Positions 9,349-26,884 of a stretch of DNA of 64,000 nucleotides are shown here, piece after piece. Source of the DNA: Pseudomonadota bacterium (GTDB lineage: Bacteria > Desulfobacterota > Anaeroferrophillalia > Anaeroferrophillales > Tharpellaceae); assembly GCA_011049115.1 (NCBI GenBank), contig DSCM01000133.1:6849-70848 (forward strand), given 5' to 3'. Position 1 is the first letter of the stretch. Each line of letters opens with the position of its first letter. The notes beneath the pieces are model-generated. The model worked only from the letters and a program-made list of their open reading frames with translations. It did no database searches and had not been told where the DNA came from. The position numbers and the translations under genes were made by a program.

Positions 9349-9351
9349 CAG

Positions 9352-11307: not shown

Positions 11308-11343
11308 GCCCGCCTGGGTTTAAACCCGCCGGCTATTTTTTTT
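11308..11343 (+). terminator. Putative terminator after rod-like gene (12-bp palindrome GGGTTTAAACCC plus GCCGGC, then T8)
   Basis: gggtttaaaccc at 11316-11327 is a perfect palindrome, followed by gccggctattttttttg; the T-run also encodes the Lys-rich C-terminus of the convergent ehr small-subunit gene. Confidence 0.4.
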
Positions 11344-12109
11344 GCCGGCCCTTGATTCTGCCGACCAGTCGCAACAGACCGTCCAGAATCGTCAGTGGAT
11401 GCGGCGGACAGCCGGGAATATACAGATCAACCGGCAAGAGGAAACCGGCGCCGTCATTAACCTGCTCATGCCCCCGGTAAGGCCCCCCACCAATCGCGCA
11501 GGCCCCGACCACAATCACGATTTTCGGCTCCGGCACCGCCTCCCAGGTTTTTTTCAGGGCCAGTTCCATGTTTTTCGTAACGGGGCCGGTAATCAGAAGG
11601 CCGTCGGCATGCCGGGGAGAGGCCACGAACTGAATCCCAAAACGCCCCAAATCCCAACCGATCGTACATAACACGTTCACATCCGCTTCGCAGGCGTTAC
11701 AACCACCCGCACTGACCTGGCGCAGTTTCAGGGAGCGGCCGAAAAGCTTTTTCAGACGCCGATCCAGCTCGGTCGCCAACCGGATTTCCATCTGTTCAGC
11801 CGTGACCTGCAAATCCTCGCGCCGACGAACCGCGAGTCGGTAATCCTCGGAAAAAGAGATGGCTTCCCGAGGACAGGCCGTCATGCAATCGGTGCAGAAA
11901 AGACATTTGCCCATATCCAGGCTTTTGTTTTCGACGTCGATCGCTCCCACCGGACAAACCTCCGCACAAATCCGACAGCCGGCCTCACATTTATCCAGGG
12001 CAAACAATAGGCGTCCGCGAAAATGCGGCGGCAGCAGCGGAGGCTTCCCTTCCGGAAACTTGATGGTACGATAGCCCTGTTTGAAACGGGAGACGAATTC
12101 CTGATACAT
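11333..12109 (-). CDS. Ehr/group-4-hydrogenase-type small subunit (NuoB/HycG-like) fused to an N-terminal 2x[4Fe-4S] ferredoxin (HycF-like) domain
   Basis: Two CxxCxxCxxxCP motifs (CEAGCRICAEVCP, CLFCTDCMTACP) then GGCNACEAD, VASPRHADGLLITGPVT, VGACAIGGGPY, IPGCPPHP (NuoB N2-cluster cysteines retained). Confidence 0.8.
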   Translation of the reverse strand: MYQEFVSRFKQGYRTIKFPEGKPPLLPPHFRGRLLFALDKCEAGCRICAEVCPVGAIDVENKSLDMGKCLFCTDCMTACPREAISFSEDYRLAVRRREDLQVTAEQMEIRLATELDRRLKKLFGRSLKLRQVSAGGCNACEADVNVLCTIGWDLGRFGIQFVASPRHADGLLITGPVTKNMELALKKTWEAVPEPKIVIVVGACAIGGGPYRGHEQVNDGAGFLLPVDLYIPGCPPHPLTILDGLLRLVGRIKGRQKK

Positions 12110-12127: not shown

Positions 12128-13660
12128 TTAAAGATCATGCCCACAATAGGAAAGATTGAAACTCTTGTTGCACAAGGGAAAATCGGAAATTTCCTGCCGC
12201 CGCAAAACCTGAGCCAGAGCAAACCAGTTGTGAAAAGATGGATCGACGATCTTGTAGCGGGCGAAACTGCCGCCCGCATCGGTGATGCCGACATGGCAAA
12301 TTTCACCCCGCCAGCCTTCGCAGAGGGCCACCGCCAGGGAATCGGCCTGCAGCGGAGCGGAAGTAACCCTCACCTTGCCGGAGGGCAAATGTTTCAACTG
12401 TTCCTCGATAAAAGCAAGGGACTGCTGAATTTCCAGCCACCGAACATAGGCCCGCCCCAGAACATCCCCTGAGTCATAAGTGGAAATCGGAATCTGCGCG
12501 AAACGATAAATCCCCGTGGGATGGTCGTAGCGCACATCCCGCGGCAGACCACAGGCGCGCGCCGCCGGCCCGACAATTCCCAGGGCGACGGCGGTCTCCC
12601 GGGCCAGACGACCGGTGTCCTCAAAACGGGCCATCACCGACTGATTCTCCCATAAAAGATTAATCGCCTCGCTCGATTCCTTTTTCAGAATGCGCAGCCG
12701 GCGCAGTAATTCCTCGATCCCACTCTGGTCGACATCAAACCCCACTCCGCCCGGTTGAATCAGCCCCCGCCCGAAACGATTGCCGCAAAGATAGGCGGTC
12801 AGGTTTAAAAACTCACCCCGAATGCGACCGCAATAACTTGCGGTCGGCAAAAAACCGACATCTCCCGACAAGGCGCCGAGATCGCCCACATGATTGGCCA
12901 GCCGCTCAAATTCCAGAGCAATGCCCCGCAGGGCCTGGGCGCGCACCGGTTTTTGTATATGGGCAAAACCTTCAAACACCTGACAATAAGCCAGGCTGTG
13001 ACCGATCGTGGTATCGCCGGCCAGGGTTTCCATAAAATGCAGGGTTCTGGCATTCGGTCCACCGGGCAGAGCTTCTTCCACCCCACGATGCTGATAGCCC
13101 AGCGCGATCTCCAGATGAAAAACCTCTTCCCCATGACATTGAAAACGAAAATGCCCCGGTTCAATAACGCCGGCATGAACCGGACCGACCGCCACCTCAT
13201 GAACCTGGTCCCCGGCAATCCGGTAAAAATCACCGACCGCCGGCAATATCGGTTCACCCGCCGGCCGCTCCCAGGCATCCCGGCCCGTCCAGGATGGGCG
13301 GTAACGCACCGGCTTAAACCAGGGATGAGACCGGGCTTTGAGGCCGAACTGCTCGGCAATTTCCCGCTCAAAGAGCTGAACCTGGTGACAGTTCGAAGCC
13401 AGGGAGGGAAAACTCGTTTCCGTCACCTCGCTACGGCCGACATAGAGATGATTATCCTCATCATCGGCCAGGACAACGTACAGAATCGTGTTTGCTTCCG
13501 ACGGCGAAGGCGCAGCGAACAGGGCGCTCACCCTTTGGCCCCGCTCAACCGCGGCGCTGATGGTCTGCATAAAATCATCAACCGCCAAACCAGGGATATC
13601 CTTCAGAGAAACAACCCCACCGTTGGCGATGGTCGCAAGTTTGGTCGACATGGGCATCAT
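12128..13660 (-). CDS. Ehr/group-4-hydrogenase-type large subunit (fused NuoC–NuoD / HycE-like) lacking canonical [NiFe]-ligating CxxC motifs
   Basis: 510 aa with NuoC-like N-terminus and NuoD/HycE-like body; no CxxC pair anywhere; C-terminus ends NLSYCGHDL rather than a DPCxxCxxR-type motif. Confidence 0.8.
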   Translation of the reverse strand: MMPMSTKLATIANGGVVSLKDIPGLAVDDFMQTISAAVERGQRVSALFAAPSPSEANTILYVVLADDEDNHLYVGRSEVTETSFPSLASNCHQVQLFEREIAEQFGLKARSHPWFKPVRYRPSWTGRDAWERPAGEPILPAVGDFYRIAGDQVHEVAVGPVHAGVIEPGHFRFQCHGEEVFHLEIALGYQHRGVEEALPGGPNARTLHFMETLAGDTTIGHSLAYCQVFEGFAHIQKPVRAQALRGIALEFERLANHVGDLGALSGDVGFLPTASYCGRIRGEFLNLTAYLCGNRFGRGLIQPGGVGFDVDQSGIEELLRRLRILKKESSEAINLLWENQSVMARFEDTGRLARETAVALGIVGPAARACGLPRDVRYDHPTGIYRFAQIPISTYDSGDVLGRAYVRWLEIQQSLAFIEEQLKHLPSGKVRVTSAPLQADSLAVALCEGWRGEICHVGITDAGGSFARYKIVDPSFHNWFALAQVLRRQEISDFPLCNKSFNLSYCGHDL

Positions 13661-15090
13661 CCTCGATTCTCCAGAAAGCTGACGGCGTTATTGAGCATGG
13701 ATTGCAGAAATTCCGGAATGTACAGGCCCAGCAGCAAGACGATTGCCATAAAAGCCAACACCGGCGCCGCCGTCAGGAAAACATCCCGGTAACCGGAGCC
13801 GATCACATCCGTGGGAACTCGACCCTGCACCACGCGTAAAACCGTGATCCCCATGCCGATAAAGACCAGGAACAGAAATACCAGGAAGAGCCCTCCGGCC
13901 CAGAAACGCCCGGTGCTGAAAGCGGCGTCAAGAATCGAGAATTCACTGATAAAGGGAGCGAAGGGAGGCGATCCGGTAATCGCCAGGAAACCGGCCAGAA
14001 ACAAAGCCCCAGATAACGGCAGACGCCGGAGAGCGCCGCACACCTGATCGGTATTCTTGCTCGCGTAAGCCCGGTGAATATTGCCGGCCGAAAGAAACAA
14101 GACCCCCTTGGTCATGGCATTATTGATCATATGCAGCAGGGTTCCGAACAGGGCCGGGCCGCCGATTCCCAGGCCCAGAACCAGGATCCCCATATGCTCG
14201 ACGCTGGAATAGGCCAGCATGCGTTTGAAATCACGCTGGCTGAGCATGAAAATACCGGCGACCGCCATGGAAAACAGGCCCATGAAAACCAGCAGTTTCG
14301 CCATAAATTGCTGTTCCCCCGCGGCAAGACCGATCTGATAGATCCGCAGCAAAGCGAGAAAGGCGCCGCTGGTAATCCCGCCGGCAAAGATACAACCGAC
14401 CACGCCGGAAGCTTCACCATAGGCATCGGGTTTCCAGGTGTGCATGGGAGCCAGCCCCATCTTCGTCCCATAACCAACCAGAATCAGGATGAACGCGGCT
14501 CGCAACCAGGGTTTCGCCAAGCCCGGTCCGTTCTCAAGCAGCTCGGTAAAACCCAGAGTCGCTTCCATTCCTCCCTGCAGGGAGGAATAGGCCAGGAAAA
14601 AGGTTCCCAACAGGGCCAGCGCGATACCCACGGATCCGACCAGCAGATATTTCCAGGTGGCTTCGATACTGCGCGGGGTATGATTGAAATAGATCAGGGG
14701 AGCCGTAACCAGGGTGGTGCCCTCGATCGCCACCCATAAGAGTCCGAGATGGTGAGCCCAGGCAACCAGGGTTATCAGCCCGAGAAAAGCCAGCAGACAA
14801 GCAACAAAGATGCGATTGGGCCGTTCCTGTCTGAATTTAAGATAGCCCACCGTGTAAAAAGACGAGAACAGATACAGCAGGGTTATGGTCAGCAGAATGA
14901 TCGCTCCGACCGGATCCAGCACGAGCCAGGGCGTCCGGCTTCCCCACTGAGGGAAAATAAGCACCAAAACAGTACCGGCGGTATGCGCCAAGGCCGTCAC
15001 CGGCATGAGCCAGGGACGCCAGTAATTACTGGTCACCACCATGGCCAAAGCGGCCATGGCCAGAGGTAACAGAATCAGGGCCAGGGCCAT
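13657..15090 (-). CDS. NuoN/NuoM/HyfF-like proton-pumping antiporter subunit
   Basis: Polytopic membrane protein with GTKMGLAPMHTWKPDAYGEA (NuoN/M signature around conserved Lys/Glu); start trimmed to MALALILL to give 4-nt overlap with upstream gene. Confidence 0.7.
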   Translation of the reverse strand: MALALILLPLAMAALAMVVTSNYWRPWLMPVTALAHTAGTVLVLIFPQWGSRTPWLVLDPVGAIILLTITLLYLFSSFYTVGYLKFRQERPNRIFVACLLAFLGLITLVAWAHHLGLLWVAIEGTTLVTAPLIYFNHTPRSIEATWKYLLVGSVGIALALLGTFFLAYSSLQGGMEATLGFTELLENGPGLAKPWLRAAFILILVGYGTKMGLAPMHTWKPDAYGEASGVVGCIFAGGITSGAFLALLRIYQIGLAAGEQQFMAKLLVFMGLFSMAVAGIFMLSQRDFKRMLAYSSVEHMGILVLGLGIGGPALFGTLLHMINNAMTKGVLFLSAGNIHRAYASKNTDQVCGALRRLPLSGALFLAGFLAITGSPPFAPFISEFSILDAAFSTGRFWAGGLFLVFLFLVFIGMGITVLRVVQGRVPTDVIGSGYRDVFLTAAPVLAFMAIVLLLGLYIPEFLQSMLNNAVSFLENRG

Positions 15091-15094
15091 GAAA

Positions 15095-15736
15095 TTACTC
15101 CTTAAGAGAAGAAAGATGGCGCGTATCCAAAGAGGAAAACGTGCGATTGATTTGGTTGGTAATGATTGAAACAATGAAAATACTGACAAAAAGGTCGAGC
15201 AGCATCCCCATTTCCACGACCAGTGGAATCGCCTCCATCAGCAGCAGGCTGAACATATAGATGCCGTTTTCCAGCACCAGATAACCCAGCACCTGAGTCA
15301 ATGATTTCAGCCTGGTCGTCAACAGAATAAACCCCACCAGGACGACCGTGATCGCGGTTGGAATAATAAGCGACTCAGACTGTCCCGGCACCTGCCCGCG
15401 CCCGCAGATCAGAAATACCGCCGCCGTCACCAGGGCGCCGATGATCGTCGACGGCAGCAAACCGATAATGGGTTCAACTTCCCGTTTGATCTGCACATCG
15501 CGCAGAGCTTTGATCATAATTGCGGGAATAACGATCCCCTTCAGGGAAATGGCCGCCAGTGAAGCCAGAATTGTGGCAAAGGAGAGATGCGAATGGATGA
15601 ACAGAGGTAAAAACCCCATCAGCACCCCCTGTAAAGCCACGATGCGAATCACCGAAATGATGCTCGCGTTGCCGAGGGCAAAAAGATTAAGCGCCAGAAT
15701 GAGCATGAAAATCGCATTCATTAACTGATCCATCAA
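15095..15736 (-). CDS. HyfE-like small hydrophobic subunit of complex I / hydrogenase-4 type
   Basis: 213 aa, ~6 predicted TM helices; position and size match HyfE in hyf/ehr-type operons. Confidence 0.55.
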   Translation of the reverse strand: MMDQLMNAIFMLILALNLFALGNASIISVIRIVALQGVLMGFLPLFIHSHLSFATILASLAAISLKGIVIPAIMIKALRDVQIKREVEPIIGLLPSTIIGALVTAAVFLICGRGQVPGQSESLIIPTAITVVLVGFILLTTRLKSLTQVLGYLVLENGIYMFSLLLMEAIPLVVEMGMLLDLFVSIFIVSIITNQINRTFSSLDTRHLSSLKE

Positions 15737-15737
15737 A

Positions 15738-16649
15738 TCACCTCAACAAAACCACAAAGGCCGAACCGCATAAAAGAACGGAGACGATCAATAAGGACGG
15801 CACTCTCGACATCCGCAGGCGGGCCATGATCGATTCGATAACCCCGACCGAAACCGCAAGCCCAAGCAAACCGGTGATAAAGATCAGCCAGTCCAGCCAG
15901 ATTTTTCCGGAAGCTGCCGGCAGCACGAGATTAAGAAAAACGGAACCGAGAACCATGAACTTTAACGACGAGGCATATTCAATCAGGCCCAGCAGAGGCC
16001 CACTGTGATCAAGCACCATAACTTCATGGATCATGGTCAATTCAAGATGGGTATTGGGGTCATCCACCGGAATACGGCTGTTCTCGGCCAGGAAGACAAT
16101 ATAAAAACCCAGGGCGATCATGACGATTGAAGCCGCACTGCCCCGATGAAAAAGAGAAACCTCTGGATCGTGCAGCATGCCGGCAAGAGAAAGTGAGCCG
16201 GAAAGTTTGGCCAGCACCAAAAAAGCAAAAAACATCGCGGGCTCGGTCAGGACCGCGAACGTCACCTCACGGGAAGCCCCCATACCTTCAAAGGCTGAAC
16301 CGGTATCCAGGGCGGCGGCGGTCGTAAAAAACCGGGCCAGGCCGAAAAGGTAGGCAAACAGGAGAAAATCCCCGGTAAAGGAGACCAGGGCCGGAGAACT
16401 GCCGAGCGGAATCAGGACGGCGGCGGCCAGCACCGCGATCAGCGTGATAATCGGGCCGGCCTGAAAAACCCAGGTGGTGGTTCCGCTCAGAACCAAACCC
16501 TTACGCATAAGCTTGAAAAGATCATAGTAAAACTGAAAAAAAGGAGCGCCTTTACGTCCGGCCAAAAAAGCTTTAGTTTTATTGACCACTCCCAGTAAAA
16601 TTGGCGGTAAAACCAACAAGAGAAACAGATGCACCGGCAGATTGATCAT
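15738..16649 (-). CDS. NuoH/HycD/HyfC-like membrane subunit
   Basis: 303 aa polytopic protein; position and size typical of the NuoH homolog in group-4-type clusters. Confidence 0.7.
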   Translation of the reverse strand: MINLPVHLFLLLVLPPILLGVVNKTKAFLAGRKGAPFFQFYYDLFKLMRKGLVLSGTTTWVFQAGPIITLIAVLAAAVLIPLGSSPALVSFTGDFLLFAYLFGLARFFTTAAALDTGSAFEGMGASREVTFAVLTEPAMFFAFLVLAKLSGSLSLAGMLHDPEVSLFHRGSAASIVMIALGFYIVFLAENSRIPVDDPNTHLELTMIHEVMVLDHSGPLLGLIEYASSLKFMVLGSVFLNLVLPAASGKIWLDWLIFITGLLGLAVSVGVIESIMARLRMSRVPSLLIVSVLLCGSAFVVLLR

Positions 16650-18644
16650 AAACCACCTCCCACGCCGCCGAAGATAAAGAGGCCCAAAGTCATCAACAGG
16701 ACGTAGAGAACATAGATATGCGTCCAGCCATGCTGAAGGATGTAGATCTTGGGCACAACTCGACTTGCCATTTTAAATGCCGGCAAAACCAGTCTGTCCA
16801 AGACGGTGTCCGGCATGACTTCCTGAAATTCAGTTTTTTGCGGAAAAGGTGAAAAGGTCAGCGCGGGAAAACGAATCATGGGCCATAAGACAAAACCGAA
16901 AAGTTTGCTAAGCGGCTGGGTAAACGAAGTCCCCGTGTACTGCATTTTTGCCGCAGGTTGCGAATAACCACAATCCCAGGTCGGCCCCGAGCCCACTATT
17001 TTTTTCTTCCGCGCGCGCAGATACCAGGCCCCCGCCACAAGCAAAGCGATCAAACTTATACCGTTACAAGAGGCCAGTCCTGAAGGTGAGGCCAAAAGGG
17101 CAAGCTTCTGGGCCGGATCGAGCAGGGGCATCCAGCAACGCACGGCTTTCTCAAACAAAGGCGACACCGCCATCGGCAGCAGGCCGATGAAAAAACAACC
17201 GCCCGCCAATAAAAACATAGGCGCCAGCATGCTGATTTCGGGATCATGCGCCGCCGCGGAAGCCGACGAGCGTGGAACGCCCAGGAAAATGGCGCCATAG
17301 AGTTTGACAAAGGTGACGACCGCCGCCAGAGCGCCGATCGTGGCCAGGGCCACGGCACCGGCACCCGCCAGGGCCAAACTCGCTTCCGGCGTTTTCGTCG
17401 CGAGGGTTTTAAACAAACCCAGATAAATAAACCATTCGCCGACAAAACCGTTAAGCGGCGGCAAGGCGCAGATGGCCAGTGCCCCAACCAGAAAAAGAGC
17501 CGCGCTCACCGGCATTTTTTTAGCGCCCCCCATTTGTTCGAGATCGCGAGTGTGCCCGGCATGAATAATCGCCCCGGCATTGAAAAAGAGCAGGGCCTTG
17601 AACAATCCATGATTCCAGACATGGAGCAGGGCACCACTCATTCCCAGGAGCACCAGTCCCGGGCGGGCACAGGTCCGGCCCAGCAGGGCAGCCCCACCCC
17701 CATGGTTATAATACCGACGTTTTCAATGCTGCTGTAAGCCAGCGCCCTTTTCAGATCACGTTGACTTAAAGCGAAAACAATGGCGAATAAACCACTCAGC
17801 CCCCCGGTAACCAGCAACAGGATACCCCACCAGGAAGCGCCACAGGAAAACAGACTGGAGATTCGCAGCAGGCCGTAAATACCCATTTTCAGCATTACTC
17901 CGGACATCAGGGCCGACACATGACTGGGGGCGTTGGCATGGGCTTCCGGCAGCCAAACATGCAAGGGCATGAGACCGGCCTTACAGGCGAAACCCAGAAG
18001 CACCAGAACAAAAATCAAGCCCGCGCCGAACAACGGCACCGTCGCCGGGGCCACCAGCAGGGAAAATGAACCCGTGGCCTGGTGCCAGAGAGAAAACATG
18101 GCGATCAGTAACAAGGTGCCGACATGAGTGGCGACCAGATAAATCCGCCGGCCTGCCGAACCTCGAGAAGATCATCCTCAATCGTGGCGGCAAAATAGGC
18201 CGAAACGGCCATAACCTCCCAGACCAGCAGAAAAAGAACGCCATCCCGGGCAATCACGACCAAAGCCATGCTCCCGGCCAGCAAGCCGTAGAAGATCCCC
18301 AGTTTCTTTCCATTTTCCGGATGCTCAAGCTGTTTCCAGTAGCTCAGGCTATAGACTGAACCAAGTGCGGCAATCGTGAAAATCAAGCTCAGGAAGAAAG
18401 CGCTGAGCGCAGCGACGGCCACGGTAAAGCTTCCCCAGGGCAAACACCAGGGCAAGGACAGGACCGAAACCTCGGTACCGCACCAAGACCATCCCGTACT
18501 CAGGATGCCCAACAGGCTTCCGGTCAGCAGCAGACTCACTGTCAAACGCTGCCCCGCCGTCGGTCCGAGCGGCAACAGACTCGCCGGTAAACCGCTGAAA
18601 AGCAACAACCCCAGACCCCAAAACACCAACCCAAGCCCTTCCAT
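16646..18644 (-). pseudogene. HyfB/NuoL/MrpA-like antiporter subunit paralog, split in three ORFs by two -1 frameshifts
   Basis: ORFs 18105..18644, 17638..18114 and 16646..17653 align colinearly to N-terminal, middle (GLMPLHVWLPEAHANAPSHVSALMSGVMLKMGIYGL) and C-terminal parts of the intact downstream paralog; junction 1 near 18150-18160, junction 2 in a run at 17691-17705 (plus strand gccccaccccc, i.e. minus-strand G5-T-G4 atgggggtggggctg). Confidence 0.7.
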
Positions 18645-18812: not shown

Positions 18813-20825
18813 TTAAAGCAGGCCGGCGAAGATCTCGGCAAAAGGAAGCAGGGTCGTCAGCATGAGTAAAACGGCCACGACGACATACAGAACATAGAGA
18901 CGCGTCTGTCCCTGCTGGAAACGATAAAACCAGCGCAGCTGCCTTTTGAGCCGACAGAAACCCGGAATCAGCGCCCGATCCAGAACCAGCTCGGCGACAT
19001 GGCTATGCAGACGGCTTCTCTCCGGCATTACGCCTCTGATTTCAGGCCCCCTGACTTCAGGTTTGAGAACCCAGACGAACAAGCCCAGTAAAGTCCGGGC
19101 AAACGATGAGGCCGTGTATTGCATCCTGGCCGTCGGCGCGGCGTAACCACAATCCCAGGTGACCACTTTGCGCCGCGACCACGGCTTGCGACAACGGCGA
19201 AAGCAAAGAACCGGAAGTAAAACCAGGCTCAGCAGAAGAAACGCCGACCAACTGATGGCGGAAAAGGGAATCAAGCCCGCCAGGGTCGGACTGTAGGTCG
19301 ACAACGAAACCGGCAACCAGGCGGCGATAGCCTGCTCAAGCACCGGAACCATCAGCCCCGGCGCCAGGCCCAGAACCAGACATAATCCGGCCAGAACCAG
19401 CATGGAAGCAAGCATGACGCCGGGCGCTTCAGGGGCCGACGCCGCCGCCGGACTGCGCGGCGTCCCCAGAAAAACCGCGCCATAGACCTTGACGAAACAA
19501 GCTATGGCCAAGGCCCCGATCATGGCCAGAACCGGAGCTGCGACCCCCACCATCAAACCAGAATTTCCCGGAACCATAAAGGTTTTAAAAACCCCCAGAT
19601 AAACAAAAAACTCACTGACAAAACCATTCAAAGGCGGCAGACCGCAGATAGCCACGGCCCCGATCAGAAAGAGAACCGCCGTCCAGGGCAGGCGTTGCGC
19701 AAGCCCCCCCAGCTGATCGATGCGGCGGGTATGAGTCGCGTGAACAATCGCTCCTGACCCCAGAAACAGCAACGATTTAAAAAGACTGTGGTTCCAGATG
19801 TGCAACAGACAGCCGGCCATTCCCAGCATAATCCATTCCGGCCGGCCATAGCTGCGGCCGAGCATGGCCAGTCCCAGACCCAGCAAGATAATGCCGATAT
19901 TTTCAACGCTGTGATACGCCAGCAGGCGCTTCAGGTCATGCTGAGCCAAGGCAAAGATAACCCCCAATAAACCGCTCAGGGCTCCGGCCGCCAGAATGAA
20001 CCAACCCCATAAGGCCGGAGGATCAGGCAGCAGGGAAAGGATGCGAATCAAGCCGTAAAGCCCGATTTTCAGCATGACTCCGGACAAGACCGCCGACACA
20101 TGACTGGGCGCGTTCGCGTGCGCACCGGGCAACCAGAAATGCAGCGGCATGATTCCAGCTTTCAGACCAAAACCGACAAAAGCCAGAAAAAACAGGATAT
20201 GGCTCTGCAACCTCGAGACGCTCCCGAGCGCCGGGGAAAAAAAAGCAAATGATCCAGTCAGATGTCGCCAGAAAATAAACAAGCCGAAAAGCACCAGGGT
20301 CCCGAAATGAGTGGCCAGCAGATAAACCAGGCCGCTCTTTCGACATTCTTCAAGCTCGTCTTCCGTCGTAACCAGAAAAAAGGCCGAAAGCGCCATCACC
20401 TCCCAGCCCAGCAGAAAAGCCAGAGCATGCGTACTGACCACCAACAAGGCCATCCCCGCCAGCAAAGTGCCCCAGAAGCAACGCAACCCGGAAGCGTTGT
20501 GTTGGTTTTTCTGCTGCGGCCAATACCCCAGACCAAAGACCGCTCCCAGAAAACCCATCACAAAAATCGGCACCAGGAAAAAGGCGCTCAGAGCGTCAAG
20601 CCCCAGACAGGAACCGCCGGCGGGCGGCCATGGGAAAGCGTGAGCGGTCGAAAAAGCCGACAGGAAAAAAACCCGACCGCTGCCGATCAAACCGGACAAG
20701 GCTCCAAGTCCCAGCAGGAAAACCGCGCTCCGCTCCCCCCAGACCGAAGTCCGCGGCAGAAAAAGCCCGGGCACCCCACTACCGGCCACCAGAATCAGGG
20801 CCAGATTCAGCAAAAAAAAATTCAC
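18813..20825 (-). CDS. HyfB/NuoL/MrpA-like antiporter subunit (intact)
   Basis: 670 aa; IMPLHFWLPGAHANAPSHVSAVLSGVMLKIGLYGLIRI signature of NuoL/MrpA family; first gene of the ehr-like operon. Confidence 0.75.
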   Translation of the reverse strand: MNFFLLNLALILVAGSGVPGLFLPRTSVWGERSAVFLLGLGALSGLIGSGRVFFLSAFSTAHAFPWPPAGGSCLGLDALSAFFLVPIFVMGFLGAVFGLGYWPQQKNQHNASGLRCFWGTLLAGMALLVVSTHALAFLLGWEVMALSAFFLVTTEDELEECRKSGLVYLLATHFGTLVLFGLFIFWRHLTGSFAFFSPALGSVSRLQSHILFFLAFVGFGLKAGIMPLHFWLPGAHANAPSHVSAVLSGVMLKIGLYGLIRILSLLPDPPALWGWFILAAGALSGLLGVIFALAQHDLKRLLAYHSVENIGIILLGLGLAMLGRSYGRPEWIMLGMAGCLLHIWNHSLFKSLLFLGSGAIVHATHTRRIDQLGGLAQRLPWTAVLFLIGAVAICGLPPLNGFVSEFFVYLGVFKTFMVPGNSGLMVGVAAPVLAMIGALAIACFVKVYGAVFLGTPRSPAAASAPEAPGVMLASMLVLAGLCLVLGLAPGLMVPVLEQAIAAWLPVSLSTYSPTLAGLIPFSAISWSAFLLLSLVLLPVLCFRRCRKPWSRRKVVTWDCGYAAPTARMQYTASSFARTLLGLFVWVLKPEVRGPEIRGVMPERSRLHSHVAELVLDRALIPGFCRLKRQLRWFYRFQQGQTRLYVLYVVVAVLLMLTTLLPFAEIFAGLL

Positions 20826-20848
20826 TCGCGGTTCCTTGGTCTATCGAT

Positions 20849-21538
20849 TCAATTTCGCGCTGGAATTTCACCTTCAATCAGAGTCAGCAGGGCCAGCAGC
20901 TCTTGTTGCGATGCTTTTTCATGTAAGGCATCCTGCAGACGTTGATTGTGTAAAACATAACTGATTCTTGACAATAAATGCAAATGAACTCGCGTCGTCG
21001 TACTGATCAGGGTAAACAGGACGTTTACGGGCTTTCCATCCAGAGCCTGGAAATCTATGGGTTTTTCTAAAAAACAAAGGGTTACCGAAGGCTTTGCGAC
21101 GTTCAAGACCACGGGATTGCGCACATGGGGGATGGCGACTCCCCCCCCGAAACCGGTTGAACCCAGACTTTCCCGCGCCAGAAGCACTTGATAAAGGAAC
21201 TCACGGTCGACCGTTTCGGGCAAATTTAGGAGGGCGACCATCGACCGCAGCACCGACGCCGAATCGTTGCCGGGCAGTTGATAGATTACGCCTCCGTGAC
21301 TAATCGCCTCCACCAAAGAGGGCAGAACCGTCGAACCGTTGCGTCCTTTCTCCAGAAAGCTATCCGGCGCCAACTTCATATGCCGGGCGTTGGCCCATTC
21401 CAGAATCTCGCTGCGCACAAAACGATATTGCTCGTTGATTTTGCGAGATGGAATGATTGACTTTTTAATCCACCGATGAATCGTGTCCTCGGAGACGTTA
21501 AGCAGTTGCGCGATGTCCTGAACCGACAAATTCATCAA
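20849..21538 (-). CDS. Transcriptional regulator: N-terminal excisionase/MerR-like HTH fused to PTS EIIA(Ntr)-type (PtsN-like) domain
   Basis: N-terminal LSVQDIAQLLNVSEDTIHRWIKKSIIPS (HTH_17-like), C-terminal GGGVAIPHVRN... (GIAIPH-type EIIA-2 phosphorylation-site motif); 23 nt upstream of ehr operon, same strand. Confidence 0.65.
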   Translation of the reverse strand: MMNLSVQDIAQLLNVSEDTIHRWIKKSIIPSRKINEQYRFVRSEILEWANARHMKLAPDSFLEKGRNGSTVLPSLVEAISHGGVIYQLPGNDSASVLRSMVALLNLPETVDREFLYQVLLARESLGSTGFGGGVAIPHVRNPVVLNVAKPSVTLCFLEKPIDFQALDGKPVNVLFTLISTTTRVHLHLLSRISYVLHNQRLQDALHEKASQQELLALLTLIEGEIPARN

Positions 21539-21603
21539 TGAAACTCCTTGAAAAAAATAACCATTTTTTTACTCCGCGGATATCGGGCAATAAAAATCAG
21601 CTC

Positions 21604-22815
21604 TTACTTCGGGGAACGGATATCAAAACGGGGAGCGGCCAGCATTCTGCCGATCTGCTCTTTCAAATCCGTCTGATCCGGGTTTTCACTAGCCTGTTCC
21701 TGCAACAGGTTAAACAAACGACTCTGCTCCAGCGGATGAGCATAGGCTTCCGGAGTGCCGTCCTTCAGTTGAATATGGGCGGCCCAGGGAACAAAATAGG
21801 TGGTTGCCGGAAACCCCTGATACTCGGAGATGTCTACGTTGAGACCCGCCACATAAAGCAGATTTTTATCGGCATACTCATTCCCCCGACGAATGGACTC
21901 CACCGTCCGGGCAAACTCAAGCTGGATATTGATCTTGGCCGCTCTCAACGCCGGGTTGGGAGCGGTGACGATCGTGGGCATGAACTCGATCAGAGATCTT
22001 TCCAGCAGGATAGACTCATCGGTTTCATGGAAAGCTTCCTGAAAAAAGAAAAGGTCATCATACAGATATTCACCGATCGCTTCCCCCTCTCCCCCCTTCC
22101 ACACATAACCTGCGATCTCAAGACGCCGGCGAAAGGATTCGGAAACCTCGTAAGTCTGGCTCGTGGAAAGGGCCGCTATCGGATTGATCCGACCGGCCGC
22201 GTCAATTCTGGCGATGTTCTCCAACCGCAGGACCAGGCCGCTTTTCACCGGATGCAAGGGGAAATCGACAAATGAATTCTTAACGGTTATCAGGTGCCGC
22301 CCCGCATCTTCCCGCCGGAGAAAGATGCGATTTCGGGCAAAATGATATTGTTCGAGATAGGGCGTGATCACATGCGTGATCTTGCCGCAGGAGTTGGAGC
22401 TGCACGAACCTTTCATTTTGGGGCGCACCCATTTTCCGTAAGCACCGGTATGCGGGTCATAGCCCACATGGCTGGCCTGCACGATCAATGAATCCTCGCC
22501 ATGATGGGCATGCGGACCATGGCGGTCAATCGCGACGATGCCGCCCACCCGGCCATGATTAAAAGGAAAGGTGCCGAAATGCTTGGTCAACAGAATAATC
22601 GGCCAGCCCTGATTTTCATCGGAGCAAAAGGCCCGGGAAGGCATGATGTAACCTTTCCTGAACCCCAGGGTCATGCAGAGGTTATAAAGCTTGGGAACGA
22701 ATTCGGCATAGGGAATAGCCAGACCATCCACCGCGAAAGGCGCCAAGGTTCTAACAATATATGGTTTCTGATAAAAATTCGGCATTGATTGAACCTCCGG
22801 TAAGCTAAACCGCAA
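21604..22815 (-). CDS. Conserved hypothetical Cys/His-rich protein
   Basis: 403 aa; segments FCSDENQGW, HGPHAHHGED, GSCSSNSCGKITH suggest metal binding; no confident family assignment from sequence alone. Confidence 0.5.
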   Translation of the reverse strand: MRFSLPEVQSMPNFYQKPYIVRTLAPFAVDGLAIPYAEFVPKLYNLCMTLGFRKGYIMPSRAFCSDENQGWPIILLTKHFGTFPFNHGRVGGIVAIDRHGPHAHHGEDSLIVQASHVGYDPHTGAYGKWVRPKMKGSCSSNSCGKITHVITPYLEQYHFARNRIFLRREDAGRHLITVKNSFVDFPLHPVKSGLVLRLENIARIDAAGRINPIAALSTSQTYEVSESFRRRLEIAGYVWKGGEGEAIGEYLYDDLFFFQEAFHETDESILLERSLIEFMPTIVTAPNPALRAAKINIQLEFARTVESIRRGNEYADKNLLYVAGLNVDISEYQGFPATTYFVPWAAHIQLKDGTPEAYAHPLEQSRLFNLLQEQASENPDQTDLKEQIGRMLAAPRFDIRSPK

Positions 22816-22875
22816 CCTGCCTTATCCATGCCTTTCCTTATCTTTCGCCGAGAAAGGCCATGTCCTCGCCTTTTC

Positions 22876-22922
22876 GCAAAAAAGCAAAGTGCCCCTTCTT
22901 AAAAGAGAGGGGCACTTTGCTT
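22876..22922 (-). terminator. Rho-independent terminator downstream of ssb
   Basis: Perfect 15-bp stem aagcaaagtgcccct / aggggcactttgctt with 10-nt loop; A6 on plus strand (T6 on minus transcript) immediately 3' of the stem. Confidence 0.6.
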
Positions 22923-23019
22923 GAGCAACCAGCTTATATAACCAGCCGTTCCTGCATGATCTTTTTCATATCACTCCGTGGCCGCCACTACCCGATTCGA
23001 AGTTCGTTCGGACTCTGAA

Positions 23020-23514
23020 TCAGAAAGGAATATCATCAGGACCGTTGTCGGGAATTGAAGAATGACCATAAGGTGCTGAATTTTCCGCACTCGACTGACC
23101 CCCGGAACCGAAACCACCGCTCCCGCCACCGGCAAAAGCTCCACCTTGGCCGCCACCGGCCGACTGACCGCCGTCCCGCCCCCCCAACATCTGCATGGTG
23201 CCGGCCACGATTTCCGTAGTCCAGCGTTTAACCCCATCCTGTTCCCAGGAACGGGTCTGTAATCTTCCTTCCAGATAAATCTGTTTACCTTTATGAAGCC
23301 ATTTGGCGCAGATTTCAGCCAGCTTGCCGAAAGCGATAATGCGGTGCCATTCGGTTCTTTCCTCCTTTTGCCCGTCCTTAACCCAGCTGTCGGTCGTAGC
23401 CAGGGTGAAAATCGTAAAGGGGTTACCGCTACTCCCATATTTCATTTCGGGATCACCGCCCAGATGCCCGACCAGAATAACCTTGTTTATTCCCGCCATC
23501 CTCTCGTCCTCCAT
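23020..23514 (-). CDS. ssb: Single-stranded DNA-binding protein
   Basis: 164 aa; OB-fold N-terminus ([15 protein letters not shown]...), Gly-rich tail ending DDIPF. Confidence 0.9.
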
Positions 23515-25117: not shown

Positions 25118-25167
25118 TTAAAGAGCGTGAAGAATCTTTAAACAAAAGATTCTTCACGCTCTTTAAA
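25118..25167. terminator. Bidirectional terminator hairpin between convergent 3-hydroxyacyl-CoA dehydrogenase and PfkB-like genes
   Basis: ~20-bp perfect inverted repeat ttaaagagcgtgaagaatcttt / aaagattcttcacgctctttaa with short loop. Confidence 0.6.
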
Positions 25168-26884
25168 TTTTGGCGTCAAATCTTCCGGTCGCAGCAGCAC
25201 CGTCAGCCCTTTTCTTGCGGGCAACTATCTCTTGGGCCAGCCTGAGAATTTCAGCAAAAGGATGGTGAACCTGCGTGGTATTGATGGTGATAATCGTATC
25301 GGTAATCGTGCCGTACCGGGTCGGATCTCCACTCTCATGAAGATGATGGGAAATTATATCCCGCAATTCGGTTTCCGTGCCCATCATGATATGGCGTTCA
25401 TTCTCGGCGATCAGATCTTTGATGCGAGGCCTCTGCCGGGTGCGAATAAAGAACTGGGCTCCCAGGGTGGCGGCTCGCAGGGCATGCCCGCTGTCCCAGC
25501 CAATCGCTTTCAAGGCAATGAAAATTCCGGCGAAGGTATCCCCGGCGCCCAGGGTTGACACCAACTCATCGACAAAATCATCCCCGCAGATAATCCGGCG
25601 ATCGGCATAACGCATGCGAAAAATCGTGTCTTCAGGCATGCGGGCCTTCCGCCAATAAAGCTGAGCCCGTGCCGGAGTCAGGCGCTCGGTATAACGAACC
25701 CCTTTGCTACCCTCGGTCAACAGCAAACGACCGCCCTTATTATTCTCTCCCTTTTTACCTTGATTCATCTGGCGCACAAGTTGACTGCAGGTCAAATCAA
25801 TCCCTCGCCGCCGAACCACGCTGTCCATAAGCAACAATTCATCGGTATTTAAAATCAGGTACTGAATAAATGGAATTATCGCATCATGAATAAGTTCCTC
25901 ACGGCTGTTGAAAAAACGTTCCTGACGCGAAGTATAGTAACGCGAAGCAACCAGCTCGTCCATGCAGCGGAACAAAGTTTTGGTCGGGCAGAAATACGTC
26001 TGTACGGCGCTGGCATACGCCGTATGCAGAAGTCTGCAGACCAGACGCAGTTCCTCCGGGTTGGTCAGCGAATTAACAATCAGATTGGTGTCGACGAACT
26101 CACTGTCTTTGCGCAGCTTATACTCAAGATCAAAATAACGTTGCGCCAGTCGTTCAACCGGAATGATCTCTTCGTTGGTCTGGTTAGAGAGCACGATGCG
26201 ATCCAGAGTCTTGCCCTCATCGTTCTCGATCGTTAAAACATAGCTCGTTCTGGGCACCAGATTTTCAACATGCATTTCCGGAATATCGCCGATCTTAACC
26301 TGATTATCCTGATAAAAGTTTTTCACAAGCTTGAACATGGGATTCTTGACATCAAAGAAAAACAGATGTTCGAACTCAATCGCCGAACTCTCGGCTTTAA
26401 GCTCAGCCGAGTTGTAAAGACAGCGAATTGCATCAATCAGGTTACGATTATTGCCCCCCAACTGCACCTTGGCCTTGCGCTTGACCAAAACCTTGTGCAG
26501 ATCCTTTTCCGTCCGAATAACGTCAGGATAAACAGCGTTAAGCCCCTTGAGCAGGGACGGCAGATCCGAAACCCGCAGATCGGCTGACTTGCGTTCCCCA
26601 TGCTTACCACCAAAAGCCATGGTATAGTATAATTTTTCATTAACCTTCTGCACTTCGCAGGCCGCCAGAGGGTTGACTATCAGCATTGCTTCGCGGCCAT
26701 CGACCTGACAACAGAAAACCGTTCCCAAAGGCAACAGTATCTTATCGTCAATCATGATAATATCATTATTGACGGCCGCCCGAATCTCCTCCAAAGAAGG
26801 TTCGATCATGTAATCGAAAACCGGAATTCCCCCTAAAAAAACAAAGCGACTTTGCGTTTTTTTATCAGCCATGACAATCCTCAT
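25163..26884 (-). CDS. Atypical PfkB-family kinase-domain protein with extra N- and C-terminal regions; low-GC gene
   Basis: 573 aa; PfkB anion-hole motif LGAGDTFAGIF near residue ~450; visibly AT-richer than flanking DNA. Confidence 0.55.
   Translation of the reverse strand: MRIVMADKKTQSRFVFLGGIPVFDYMIEPSLEEIRAAVNNDIIMIDDKILLPLGTVFCCQVDGREAMLIVNPLAACEVQKVNEKLYYTMAFGGKHGERKSADLRVSDLPSLLKGLNAVYPDVIRTEKDLHKVLVKRKAKVQLGGNNRNLIDAIRCLYNSAELKAESSAIEFEHLFFFDVKNPMFKLVKNFYQDNQVKIGDIPEMHVENLVPRTSYVLTIENDEGKTLDRIVLSNQTNEEIIPVERLAQRYFDLEYKLRKDSEFVDTNLIVNSLTNPEELRLVCRLLHTAYASAVQTYFCPTKTLFRCMDELVASRYYTSRQERFFNSREELIHDAIIPFIQYLILNTDELLLMDSVVRRRGIDLTCSQLVRQMNQGKKGENNKGGRLLLTEGSKGVRYTERLTPARAQLYWRKARMPEDTIFRMRYADRRIICGDDFVDELVSTLGAGDTFAGIFIALKAIGWDSGHALRAATLGAQFFIRTRQRPRIKDLIAENERHIMMGTETELRDIISHHLHESGDPTRYGTITDTIITINTTQVHHPFAEILRLAQEIVARKKRADGAAATGRFDAKI

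Follow-up and report, generated by a model that had tools for sequence, protein, structure and literature searches.

Directly upstream of an operon for an Ehr complex, the stretch of DNA analysed here (64,000 nucleotides, hereafter the window) carries two genes on the same strand as the operon, and the question raised by this locus is what their products are and whether they belong with the complex. The initial annotation had placed open reading frames at 20849..21538 (229 aa) and 21604..22815 (403 aa), with 23 nt between the first of them and the ehr genes and 65 nt between the two, and all these values were reproduced. As listed, both frames lie on the minus strand and begin with TTG. For the larger gene, ATG 22785, with GGAGG located 8 nt on its 5' side, is likely to be the true start, giving 393 aa, which is the length typical of the family and that of the public protein identical to it (P0001). 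For the smaller gene the true start is likely ATG 21535, which has AGGAG on its 5' side and gives 228 aa, as in the public protein P0271. The features of the locus are as follows.

22880 to 22925, minus strand: intrinsic terminator belonging to ssb, the gene upstream; hairpin AAAGUGCCCCU…AGGGGCACUUU with a U-run behind it
21604 to 22785, minus strand: LCIB-like (theta/beta-type) carbonic-anhydrase homologue, 393 aa
20849 to 21535, minus strand: fusion of HTH_17 with EIIA(Ntr-like), leader gene of type-A Ehr, 228 aa
18813 to 20825, minus strand: ehrA-1, NuoL/HyfB-like antiporter-like subunit, 670 aa (Proton_antipo_M, 172 bits)
16646 to 18644, minus strand: ehrA-2, second NuoL/HyfB-like gene, with two frameshifts, in three ORFs
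15738 to 16649, minus strand: ehrB, NuoH-like membrane subunit, 303 aa (Pfam NADHdh, 106.9 bits)
15095 to 15736, minus strand: ehrC, HyfE-like membrane subunit, about 212 aa, its position conserved in all Ehr operons
13657 to 15090, minus strand: ehrD, NuoN/HyfF-like antiporter-like subunit, about 477 aa (Proton_antipo_M, 153 bits)
12128 to 13651, minus strand: ehrL, NuoC/NuoD-like large subunit without NiFe ligands (Complex1_49kDa, 136.8 bits)
11333 to 12109, minus strand: ehrS, NuoI-like 2x[4Fe-4S] ferredoxin domain joined to a NuoB-like domain (Oxidored_q6, 87.5 bits; Fer4)

The product of the larger gene had been described as Cys/His-rich and of unrecognised family. The cysteine part of this description did not hold (4 Cys, 1.0%); histidines number 15 (3.8%), and there is a single His-rich stretch, HGPHAHHGED. 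The protein can also be assigned to a family. Against Pfam LCIB_C_CA (PF18599) it scores 19.1 bits (E = 8.5e-4), which does not reach the gathering cut-off of 25, but P0124, P0127, P0136, P0138 and P0198, homologues at 29-47% identity, lie above that cut-off with 27.5-35.3 bits, and LCIB membership therefore holds transitively. Its best PDB profile match is PtLCIB4, with the CSDE and SHVG motifs aligned, so that C54/S55/D56 fall on C46/S47/D48, H92 on H88 and H106 on H102. For the AF2 model (pLDDT 92.3, pTM 0.89) the top eight Foldseek matches in the PDB all belong to the LCIB family (6kfs, 5b5y, 5b5z, 5b60, 5k5w, 5b5x; E from 7e-10 to 1.7e-4), with a target-normalised TM of 0.76-0.78 for 5b5y and 6kfs, and the first match beyond the family has E = 0.03. 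The lead towards LCIB or beta-carbonic anhydrases given in the initial annotation proved correct.

We take the zinc site of PtLCIB4 to consist of C46, H102 and C126 together with D48, a numbering which agrees with the titles of PDB entries (S47R, H88A). Given a 4-residue loop shift, C133-G134 of the window protein would correspond to C126-G of the diatom enzyme. In an alignment of 36 sequences that extends down to 25% identity, each of C54, D56, H106 and C133 reaches a conservation of 90% or more. Ser55 and His92 match the residues that mark PtLCIB4 as an active enzyme, and certain members of the LCIB family are inactive in vitro (PMC5876011). No transmembrane segment was found in the protein. 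On sequence and model, the 393-aa product is a soluble LCIB-family carbonic-anhydrase homologue with a predicted Cys-Asp…His…Cys zinc site.

In the 228-aa product Pfam recognises HTH_17 (50.5 bits, residues 4-52) and PTS_EIIA_2 (86.6 bits, residues 84-218), the latter with the phospho-histidine motif GGGVAIPHVRNP, and the HTH–EIIA(Ntr-like) architecture claimed for the gene heading the ehr genes was in this way recovered. Among 20 diverse homologues His137 (in GIAIPHVRNP), Arg121 and His184/186 are invariant. The closest solved structures are those of PtsN (E = 2e-20). Orthology with PtsN was considered and rejected: the NCBIfam equivalog cut-offs are missed (TIGR01419, 71 bits against 138.7; NF008145, 63 against 221), and PtsN is a single domain of ~160 aa, without the additional N-terminal HTH_17. 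A full regulator of the MtlR/LicR type was also rejected, as Pfam gives no PRD or EIIB match. Its family comprises over 4,700 proteins with 57-69% identity across phyla. The protein joins an HTH of the excisionase/MerR type to a PtsN-like EIIA domain in which the phospho-histidine site is intact.

The ehr genes themselves yield a consistent subunit set (Proton_antipo_M three times, NADHdh, Complex1_49kDa/30kDa, Oxidored_q6 with Fer4). The best NCBIfam match of ehrA-1 is hydrogenase 4 subunit B, under the cut-off of that model. In ehrA-2, homology to the intact protein of locus L088 spans three frames, with switches near 18145 and 17695, and on the public contig the gene is split into the same three pieces. 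The longest ORF of ehrD reaches 15189, the called gene being 477 aa long. [NiFe] hydrogenases bind their metals by RxCGxCxxxH and a C-terminal CxxC; the first position (L1) reads ETLAGDTTIGH in EhrL, and its C-terminus, PLCNKSFNLSYCGHDL, is without CxxC. Judged against what we take to be the complex-I motif, the aligned position of EhrL is also without the Tyr. EhrS contains two CxxCxxCxxxCP-type motifs and four NuoB-type Cys. No Pfam domain was matched in the ehrC product, whose counterpart in Geobacter has been called HyfE-like (PMC8691401). By its predicted products, the operon is a NiFe-less, seven-gene subunit set of the group-4-hydrogenase/complex-I type. The role of Ehr has never been investigated according to PMC7894505, which found all Ehr subunits increased in G. 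sulfurreducens grown on formate, and an FDH–Ehr pairing has been proposed (PMC6349859, PMC7894505).

The hairpin of the ssb terminator is strong (-31.4 kcal/mol, z = -5.4) and sets the 5' limit of the unit of transcription. No terminator-like site was seen on the coding strand at the junctions between the LCIB-like gene and HTH–EIIA and between HTH–EIIA and ehrA-1, and a simple promoter and terminator scan of 20700-23100 gave nothing exceeding shuffled expectation and nothing at the junctions. The region 5' of the LCIB-like gene (22786-22900) has no sigma-54 promoter match, window-wide counts of such matches being those of chance, and a scan of the region with Rfam returned chance matches on the terminator hairpin only. 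We infer that the LCIB-like gene, HTH–EIIA and the ehr genes form one transcription unit beginning past the ssb terminator. The remaining genes of the window are housekeeping ones (chemotaxis, aconitase B, aromatic amino-acid synthesis) and offer no carbon-fixation context; SulP, a type-B Ehr and a small leader ORF, which recur at the related loci described below, are absent from the window.

Whether the two genes are conserved neighbours of Ehr was followed for each of them separately. The closest relatives are found in Desulfobulbales and in Candidatus Tharpella MAGs, not in Desulfuromonadales, the group in which the initial annotation had suggested looking for co-occurrence. An LCIB-like relative is encoded by 383 GTDB species genomes, of which the best 80 of the 383 loci were examined and 66 were informative. 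In 49 of these 66 (best 80 of 383) a six-gene Ehr operon of the lineage here called type B directly adjoins the LCIB-like gene on the same strand, a count which shared descent inflates, since the Ehr-linked loci are confined to one bacterial order and its close relatives. Among the best 80 of 383, the gene lies upstream of ehrA in 44 loci and downstream of ehrS in 5; a third order, upstream of HTH–EIIA and a type-A Ehr, is that of the window and of locus L014. A small ORF precedes the LCIB-like gene in 12 loci (best 80 of 383), and the same ORF directly precedes ehrA in operons from which the LCIB-like gene is missing, so that the latter sits inside the operon. An orthologous SulP+STAS transporter gene occurs in 16 of the 80 loci (best 80 of 383), often directly after ehrS or adjoining the LCIB-like gene. 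Three of three type-B operons sampled from other Desulfobulbales have no LCIB-like gene next to them. In Desulfopila, genes for TrkA/TrkH follow the type-B operon. In Desulfobulbales the LCIB-like gene lies inside type-B Ehr operons or directly against them.

HTH–EIIA keeps different company. We assembled 83 of its loci, three inspected individually and 80 from a metagenome scan, and 76 were informative. An ehrA-like gene follows immediately in 70 of the 76, including all three inspected individually, at a fixed position with a spacing of 14-40 nt, and 18 of the 21 loci with enough flank have all of the Ehr genes. The LCIB-like gene occurs in none of the 83; the window and its relative L014 are the only loci with both. 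Neighbour clustering over 43 loci revealed no recurrent partner (carbonic anhydrase, FDH, SulP) of type-A Ehr. HTH–EIIA is the leader gene of the type-A (Geobacter-type) Ehr lineage in many phyla, and the LCIB-like gene and HTH–EIIA are conserved partners of two different Ehr lineages, a division which the initial annotation had not foreseen. As each is a conserved neighbour of ehr clusters, both genes withstand the refutation that the initial annotation had set for them.

How both came to stand at one locus can be read from three relatives, L019, L023 and L049, which have the block EF-G–SPOR–RelA–orf573–HCDH–ssb–LCIB-like in common with the window at 74-87% identity (lower, 39-43%, for the SPOR protein). 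L023 also shares the downstream phosphomannomutase gene. Downstream of the LCIB-like gene L019 and L023 carry a type-B Ehr, and L049 ends soon past that gene. The window subunits are 57-86% identical to those of type A, a Spirochaetes MAG included, and only 34-50% identical to those of type B. The window is therefore a hybrid. Since close relatives share the flanks and the LCIB-like gene but carry the other Ehr lineage, the operon was swapped in place: a type-A operon, led by its HTH–EIIA gene, took the position of a type-B operon downstream of the resident LCIB-like gene, and the flanks on either side were conserved.

We propose, with a probability of about 0.5, that the locus is one transcription unit for three things, namely a carbonic anhydrase, a regulator open to phosphorylation by the PTS, and an Ehr complex, and that the anhydrase probably serves inorganic-carbon handling by Ehr. 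The two would cooperate as follows. Removal of protons via the antiporter-like EhrA/EhrD would pull the hydration of CO2 in the cytoplasm. The energy would be drawn either from the proton-motive force or from electrons that enter at the three EhrS Fe-S clusters, and bicarbonate would be trapped or moved, possibly aided by the frequently linked SulP transporter. HTH–EIIA would regulate the ehr genes, its activity being set by phosphorylation of His137 from HPr/NPr~P, in a manner modelled on a minimal MtlR/LicR-type or a PtsN-type control.

The alternative that survives best, doubtful as we consider it, is a soluble carbonic anhydrase co-expressed with Ehr but unattached to it, which equilibrates cytoplasmic CO2/HCO3-/H+. 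Such an enzyme could buffer protons handled by the redox/antiporter module of Ehr, or could act as source or sink of CO2 for a partner reaction (formate oxidation in an FDH–Ehr pair), or deliver HCO3- to SulP. PtLCIB4, matched by the window protein at Ser55 and His92, is active alone, and the window protein is without a membrane segment. The gap between the LCIB-like gene and ehrA is wide, typically 100-900 nt, and translational coupling is therefore not evident. The gene is solitary in 17 of 66 informative loci (best 80 of 383), for instance in several Electrothrix and in Desulfobacula, with no common neighbour except a LysR regulator in Desulfobacula; because of such copies, the protein can be said to function without Ehr. 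The proposed FDH–Ehr pairing and the induction of Ehr on formate (PMC6349859, PMC7894505) fit as well, but no FDH gene was found in the LCIB-like/Ehr clusters, and this explanation leaves unaccounted for an adjacency maintained through three rearrangements and one operon swap.

The cooperation of anhydrase and Ehr that we prefer would work as CupA does with NDH-1MS and DabA with DabB. The initial annotation had drawn an analogy with Cup proteins. Homology to CupA/ChpX, or to DabA, was not found, LCIB_C_CA being the only Pfam family matched and neither protein appearing among the top Foldseek matches; the analogy itself is hypothetical, and is considerably more concrete with the operon data. 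In its strongest and more tentative form, which we hold to be on the whole improbable, the LCIB-like protein is a peripheral Ehr subunit and the complex a third vectorial carbonic anhydrase after CupA/NDH-1MS and DabAB. That machine would be driven by ferredoxin or by the proton-motive force, and would trap bicarbonate in anaerobic Desulfobulbales and relatives of cable bacteria. In these sulfur-cycling hosts sulfate could be a substrate of SulP.

For the regulator, control of the complex by the nitrogen PTS had been suggested, and at this locus it is a prediction. A search of the 64-kb window for signature motifs of HPr/NPr, EI and HprK gave none that is relevant. At other HTH–EIIA loci phased GGACA/TGTCC sites accompany a sigma-70-type promoter, with a constant spacing to the start codon; this array is absent from the 65-nt spacer in the window and from L014. 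A lone GGACAT, 80 nt upstream of the LCIB-like start, was considered as an operator and taken as chance. It is possible, if unlikely, that HTH–EIIA, rather than binding DNA as a transcription factor, works on the Ehr complex as a PtsN-like protein-protein regulator, or is even a peripheral subunit of it, and switches its activity according to phosphorylation state. E. coli PtsN works by binding TrkA, KdpD and other proteins, a precedent which the TrkA/TrkH genes behind the Desulfopila type-B operon recall. Identity of 57-69% across phyla is unusually high for a regulator, the gene lies 14-40 nt before ehrA, and in the window it is intact although the operator-like array is missing. Against this, the HTH_17 domain is fully conserved among the homologues, the TIYRWI recognition region included, and in many loci the GGACA/TGTCC array overlaps the sigma-70-type promoter, as autoregulation predicts.

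It is very improbable that the adjacency of both genes to ehr is nothing more than synteny inherited in one clade, without functional meaning. The linked LCIB-like loci do come from one order-level group, and both partners are also found apart. Yet the LCIB-like gene adjoins Ehr in 49 of 66 loci (best 80 of 383) across species with LCIB-like proteins as far apart as 66-80% identity, it does so in three independent gene orders, it has its place between the small leader ORF and ehrA, and it was kept through a non-orthologous replacement of Ehr; the HTH–EIIA link, in turn, is seen in 70 of 76 loci and spans phyla.

Some enzymes of the beta-carbonic-anhydrase fold in sulfur bacteria and archaea hydrolyse COS or CS2 and retain an identical Cys-His-Cys-Asp site, so sequence alone does not discriminate. 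That the window protein is one of them, with Ehr linked to sulfur rather than carbon metabolism, is the least probable of all these explanations: the hosts are indeed sulfur-cycling Desulfobulbales and SulP may carry sulfate, but the closest structures are all LCIB-family proteins of CO2-concentrating mechanisms, and no COS or CS2 hydrolase is among the top 50 structural matches.

Ehr complexes are widespread relatives of complex I, first described in Geobacter, and an LCIB-family gene that forms part of Ehr operons in dozens of species, and that was kept when the Ehr operon itself was exchanged, provides a testable hypothesis for the work of at least some of them. Our literature search met no report linking LCIB, or HTH–EIIA, with Ehr. 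If the proposed cooperation is true, the principle of a proton-pumping module joined to a carbonic anhydrase, known from cyanobacterial NDH-1MS and from DAB of chemolithoautotrophs, reaches sulfur-cycling anaerobes, among them relatives of cable bacteria, with a bearing on the LCIB mechanism in algal CO2-concentrating mechanisms. In the strongest form, with the LCIB-like protein as an Ehr subunit, Ehr complexes would gain their first assigned function, and a bacterial model would become available for the energy-dependent, one-way CO2 hydration proposed for algal LCIB. The HTH–EIIA leader would then tie the type-A Ehr machine to the carbon/nitrogen status sensed by the PTS; this unnamed, highly conserved family hints at control of a respiratory-like complex by PTS-type phosphorylation.

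Compared with the LCIB family (PtLCIB4, Chlamydomonas LCIB/LCIC), the window protein has the same fold, the CSDE and SHVG motifs and the predicted Cys-His-Cys ligands with Asp, and Ser after the first Cys is common to it and the catalytically active PtLCIB4. It differs in being bacterial and cytoplasmic and in exceeding the crystallised core of LCIB by ~150 residues. We know of no linkage of algal LCIB to a complex-I-like operon, whereas the LCIB-like gene of the window lies in or beside one.

Two vectorial carbonic anhydrases are known, NDH-1MS and DAB (PMC13144422). Like cyanobacterial NDH-1MS (NDH-1_3/4) with CupA/CupB (ChpY/ChpX), the Ehr system is a complex-I-like module without NADH-input subunits, in which NuoI/NuoB-type Fe-S clusters and NuoL/M/N-like subunits are genetically joined to a zinc CO2-hydrating accessory, here a putative one, and in both cases the core complex is also found without the accessory protein. 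Unlike NDH-1MS, Ehr belongs to a branch related to group-4 hydrogenases, its hosts are anaerobic Desulfobulbales, and physical attachment and energy coupling are hypothetical here. With DabA/DabB it has in common a beta-CA-like protein encoded beside a NuoL-like proton-conducting subunit and a proposed use of proton flux for one-way CO2 hydration (PMC13144422); in contrast, the LCIB-like protein has no homology to DabA (DUF2309) and no transmembrane helix, and Ehr has six or seven subunits with an Fe-S arm, DAB two. Pairs of SulP (BicA-type bicarbonate transport) and carbonic anhydrase genes are resembled by the SulP+STAS genes recurring beside LCIB-like/Ehr clusters, although not in the window.

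The Ehr operon of Geobacter sulfurreducens (GSU0739-0745) has the same ehrA-1, ehrA-2, ehrB, ehrC, ehrD, ehrL and ehrS genes and is likewise NiFe-less (PMC8691401, PMC6349859), an equivalence based on gene order and names; in the window, by contrast, ehrA-2 is frameshifted and an LCIB-like gene stands ahead of the operon. The EIIA_2 domain of the leader protein is closest to PtsN structures and keeps the phospho-His, the Arg and the second His. With MtlR/LicR it shares the combination of HTH and EIIA, but not PRD or EIIB, and unlike PtsN and MtlR/LicR alike, HTH–EIIA of the window type is dedicated to Ehr operons.

The genes considered here are all encoded on the minus strand of the window, in the following order.

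23020-23514, minus strand: ssb, first gene in the listed order
about 22925-22880, minus strand: strong intrinsic terminator (-31.4 kcal/mol, z = -5.4)
21604-22815, minus strand: 403-aa ORF (LCIB-like)
20849-21538, minus strand: 229-aa ORF (HTH–EIIA)
18813-20825, minus strand: 670-aa NuoL/HyfB-like gene
16646-18644, minus strand: second ehrA (NuoL-like), in three ORFs owing to frameshifts at two places, near 18145 and 17695

The intergenic distances reported in the initial annotation, 65 nt between the 403-aa and 229-aa ORFs and 23 nt between the latter and the NuoL/HyfB-like gene, were confirmed. The likely true start of the LCIB-like ORF is ATG 22785, since GGAGG is located 8 nt upstream, its homologues are 393 aa long and the identical public protein P0001 also has 393 aa. 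HTH–EIIA likely starts at ATG 21535, which AGGAG precedes and which agrees with the 228 aa of the identical public protein P0271.

After the first NuoL/HyfB-like gene comes the second NuoL-like one, then genes for a NuoH-like protein, a membrane protein of 213 aa, a NuoN-like protein, the NuoC/D-like large subunit and the NuoI+NuoB-like small subunit. Large subunits of [NiFe] hydrogenases carry RxCGxCxxxH. At this position the window protein has ETLAGDTTIGH, and a C-terminal CxxC is absent from it. The small subunit retains two ferredoxin-type motifs and four NuoB-type cysteines. By these sequence features the complex is no hydrogenase but of the Ehr type. The seven-gene layout agrees with that of the named Ehr genes of Geobacter sulfurreducens, GSU0739-0745 (PMC8691401), the equivalence being drawn from gene order and names alone.

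The product of the 403-aa ORF had been described as Cys/His-rich and of unrecognised family, with a comparison to LCIB/beta-carbonic-anhydrase-like proteins suggested. The 393-aa protein contains 4 Cys and 15 His, so the description does not hold for cysteine, and a search for membrane segments found none in it. Its sole Pfam match is LCIB_C_CA at 19.1 bits, below the cut-off of 25; exhaustive search for relatives yielded 320 clusters, and several distant members of the family pass this cut-off with 27.5-35.3 bits. The top PDB sequence match of the family profile is PtLCIB4, with CSDE aligned to CSDE and SHVG to SHVG. Using PtLCIB4 numbering fixed by PDB entry titles (S47R, H88A), window residues C54/S55/D56 correspond to C46/S47/D48, H92 to H88 and H106 to H102, and C133-G134 fits C126-G only with a short loop shift. 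C54, D56, H106 and C133 show at least 90% conservation in a 36-sequence alignment reaching down to 25% identity. The first AlphaFold model, built on a shallow alignment, had a poor conserved core; a diverse alignment gave pLDDT 92.3 and pTM 0.89. All eight top PDB structural matches of this model are LCIB-family proteins (6kfs, PtLCIB4 and its mutants, Chlamydomonas LCIB and LCIC), with E from 7e-10 to 1.7e-4 and TM up to 0.78 on target, the next match having E = 0.03. Profile match, conserved residues and predicted fold thus gave a positive answer to the suggested comparison, and place the protein in the LCIB (theta/beta carbonic anhydrase) family.

Relatives of the LCIB-like protein were found in 383 GTDB species genomes, and the best 80 of these 383 loci were compared, with Ehr neighbours detected by tblastn using the proteins of the window. 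All 80 belong to Desulfobulbales, Desulfobacterales or related MAGs, cable bacteria among them. A six-gene Ehr operon lies directly downstream of the LCIB-like gene on the same strand in 44/80 loci and directly upstream in 5/80; of the other 31, the flanks are long enough to judge in 17. The gene is therefore a conserved ehr neighbour, a point that the initial annotation had put up for checking, in 49/66 informative loci among the best 80 of 383, the linked loci all coming from one broad clade, so that these counts are not independent. Their Ehr proteins are 34-50% identical to those of the window and their LCIB-like proteins 66-80%; we labelled this Ehr lineage type B. An orthologous SulP+STAS transporter is present in 16/80 loci, often just past ehrS or adjoining the LCIB-like gene. 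Two tandem LCIB-like copies, each 74% identical to that of the window, precede the type-B operon in one locus (L039, 5281-8368).

An adjacent LCIB-like gene is missing from 3/3 type-B operons sampled from other Desulfobulbales (Desulfosediminicola, Desulfopila, uncultured Desulfobulbus). At their head is a small ORF, or a pair of them, of 79-96 aa and outside any Pfam family. In 12 loci the same small ORF directly precedes the LCIB-like gene, which puts the carbonic-anhydrase gene inside the operon, between leader ORF and ehrA. The small proteins may represent an unrecognised Ehr-associated factor; L079 encodes two copies. These ORFs, and the consensus or near-consensus sigma-54 promoters (e.g. 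TGGCACGCATATTGCA) found about 70-80 nt 5' of them, are as follows.

L169 4041-4658; L170 4082-4738; L171 4514-4756; L008 9721-9945; and 11 other loci: small Ehr leader ORFs, motif GITQ…GPF.S…W…WYGF
L169 3973-3988; L171 4445-4460; L079 9288-9303: sigma-54 promoters

From these promoters, at least some type-B Ehr operons appear to be RpoN-dependent. In L169 and L171 the promoters adjoin a HisKA and sigma-54-activator pair. Directly 3' of the type-B operon, Desulfopila aestuarii carries TrkA/TrkH potassium-uptake genes (L171, 12538-15335), and a Hyb-type [NiFe] hydrogenase cluster lies 3' of that of the uncultured Desulfobulbus (L170, 13347-18895). Solitary LCIB-like genes have no conserved neighbours save in Desulfobacula (L067, L071, L075; about 8916-9806), where a same-strand LysR-family regulator gene located 5' recalls the LysR-governed inorganic-carbon genes of other bacteria.

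HTH–EIIA belongs to another Ehr lineage. Its EIIA domain is nearest to PtsN structures (E = 2e-20), and it scores far under the NCBIfam PtsN equivalog cut-offs. The fusion family comprises more than 4,700 matches, and its members share 57-69% identity although they come from groups as diverse as Spirochaetes, Latescibacteria, Phycisphaerae and Victivallaceae. Its EIIA domain is invariant at His137 (in GIAIPHVRNP), Arg121 and His184/186, and conservation extends to the HTH. The expected conserved neighbourhood with ehr was also found for this gene, an ehrA-like gene being directly downstream in 3/3 inspected contexts and in 70/76 informative loci overall, from these contexts and an 80-locus metagenome scan. 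The whole Ehr gene set is present in 18/21 loci with enough flank. No LCIB-like gene was found in 83 HTH–EIIA loci (0/83), and clustering of neighbouring genes revealed no other recurrent partner. HTH–EIIA is thus the leader gene of an Ehr lineage other than the LCIB-linked one, referred to as type A, to which the Ehr proteins of the window are 57-86% identical. The apparent RpoN dependence of type-B operons echoes this EIIA(Ntr)-like leader.

Two ehrA copies occur in 15/35 HTH–EIIA loci. As about 20/35 type-A operons are without any second ehrA, the split ehrA-2 of the window could be a real pseudogene, not an artefact of assembly. Neither frameshift is inside a long homopolymer, and the public contig has identical breaks. 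Phosphomannomutase (7956-9348, minus strand), in two overlapping ORFs (8806-9348 and 7956-8885), is the second frameshifted gene of the window, and here too assembly quality or real gene decay is in question.

Upstream of HTH–EIIA in other loci we noticed a promoter of sigma-70 type whose position is fixed, at about -76 relative to the start codon, and which is interleaved with GGACA/TGTCC sites. The array, of consensus aTTGACATTt..GGACAtt.....AtA.t.tcC.....TGTcCa, spans about -76 to -10. TTGACA-N4-6-GGA(C/T)A occurs in 18/70 HTH–EIIA upstream regions vs 0/57 controls, GGACA/TGTCC sites average 1.44 vs 0.26 per 150 nt, and the most frequent TGTCC-to-TGTCC spacing is 10 nt. The array looks like an autoregulatory operator. 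It is present at fixed distance in L087-L120 and others, which are HTH–EIIA genes from unrelated metagenomes, and absent from the 65-nt spacer of the window and from L014.

The history of the window locus emerges from comparison with homologous loci L014, L019, L023 (Candidatus Tharpella) and L049. An upstream block of EF-G, SPOR protein, RelA, a 573-aa protein, HCDH, ssb and the LCIB-like gene is common to the window, L019, L023 and L049 (identity 74-87%; SPOR protein 39-43%), and the downstream phosphomannomutase gene is also common to the window and L023. The 573-aa protein (25163-26884, minus strand), without Pfam family, sits between HCDH and RelA in the same place in L019, L023 and L049, with 74-78% identity. 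Between the common flanks L019 and L023 carry a type-B operon, while L049 stops just past the LCIB-like gene; the window and L014 have HTH–EIIA and type-A Ehr at this place. Judging by these flanks, a non-orthologous Ehr operon was exchanged behind the resident carbonic-anhydrase gene, and the window locus is a hybrid produced by in-place operon swap. This swap, together with three different gene orders that keep the adjacency, argues that the LCIB/Ehr linkage is selected rather than accidental, though every case stems from one broad clade.

On the established identities, operon memberships and swap we base the following scheme. The LCIB-like, HTH–EIIA and Ehr genes would be transcribed as a single unit, from a start no more than about 95 nt past the ssb terminator, as suggested by this terminator and by the lack of any coding-strand terminator-like site at the two junctions (LCIB-like/HTH–EIIA, HTH–EIIA/ehrA). 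HTH–EIIA would be a regulator switched by His137 phosphorylation through an HPr/NPr relay, acting on DNA or, PtsN-like, by direct action on a target protein. The role of the carbonic anhydrase would be to serve Ehr in inorganic-carbon handling, in the most specific version as a vectorial enzyme: zinc-bound hydroxide would attack CO2, the released proton would be drawn off via EhrA/EhrD, driven by proton-motive force or by electrons passing along the three Fe-S clusters in EhrS, and bicarbonate would be trapped or handed to SulP. The hypothesised one-way rehydration of CO2 by LCIB in algae (PMC5876011) fits vectorial operation, as does the increase of all G. sulfurreducens Ehr subunits on formate and in conditions suggesting autotrophy (PMC7894505). 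Against it we count that the LCIB/Ehr association is facultative in both directions, that no carbonic anhydrase gene accompanies type-A operons elsewhere, and that the LCIB-like protein has the look of a carbonic anhydrase of the active type, able to work by itself. A free carbonic anhydrase that is co-expressed with Ehr and no more is the chief alternative; we hold it less likely than a role in the service of Ehr, and about as likely as the vectorial version.

In the literature collection that was searched, no paper links LCIB-family proteins with Ehr or hydrogenase-like complexes, and none describes HTH–EIIA as a leader gene. Published work explicitly calls the function of Ehr unknown (PMC7894505, PMC6349859), and the LCIB/Ehr link makes this question directly testable. 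LCIB-family carbonic anhydrase, PtsN-like EIIA domain and Ehr complex each belong to known kinds; new are their combination and the two lineage-specific partnerships, LCIB-like with type B and HTH–EIIA with type A. The LCIB-like/Ehr pair would fall under a known kind, in which a complex-I-like module bears a carbonic anhydrase as accessory, and the model for the proposed vectorial scheme is provided by CupA on NDH-1MS and DabA on DabB (PMC13144422).
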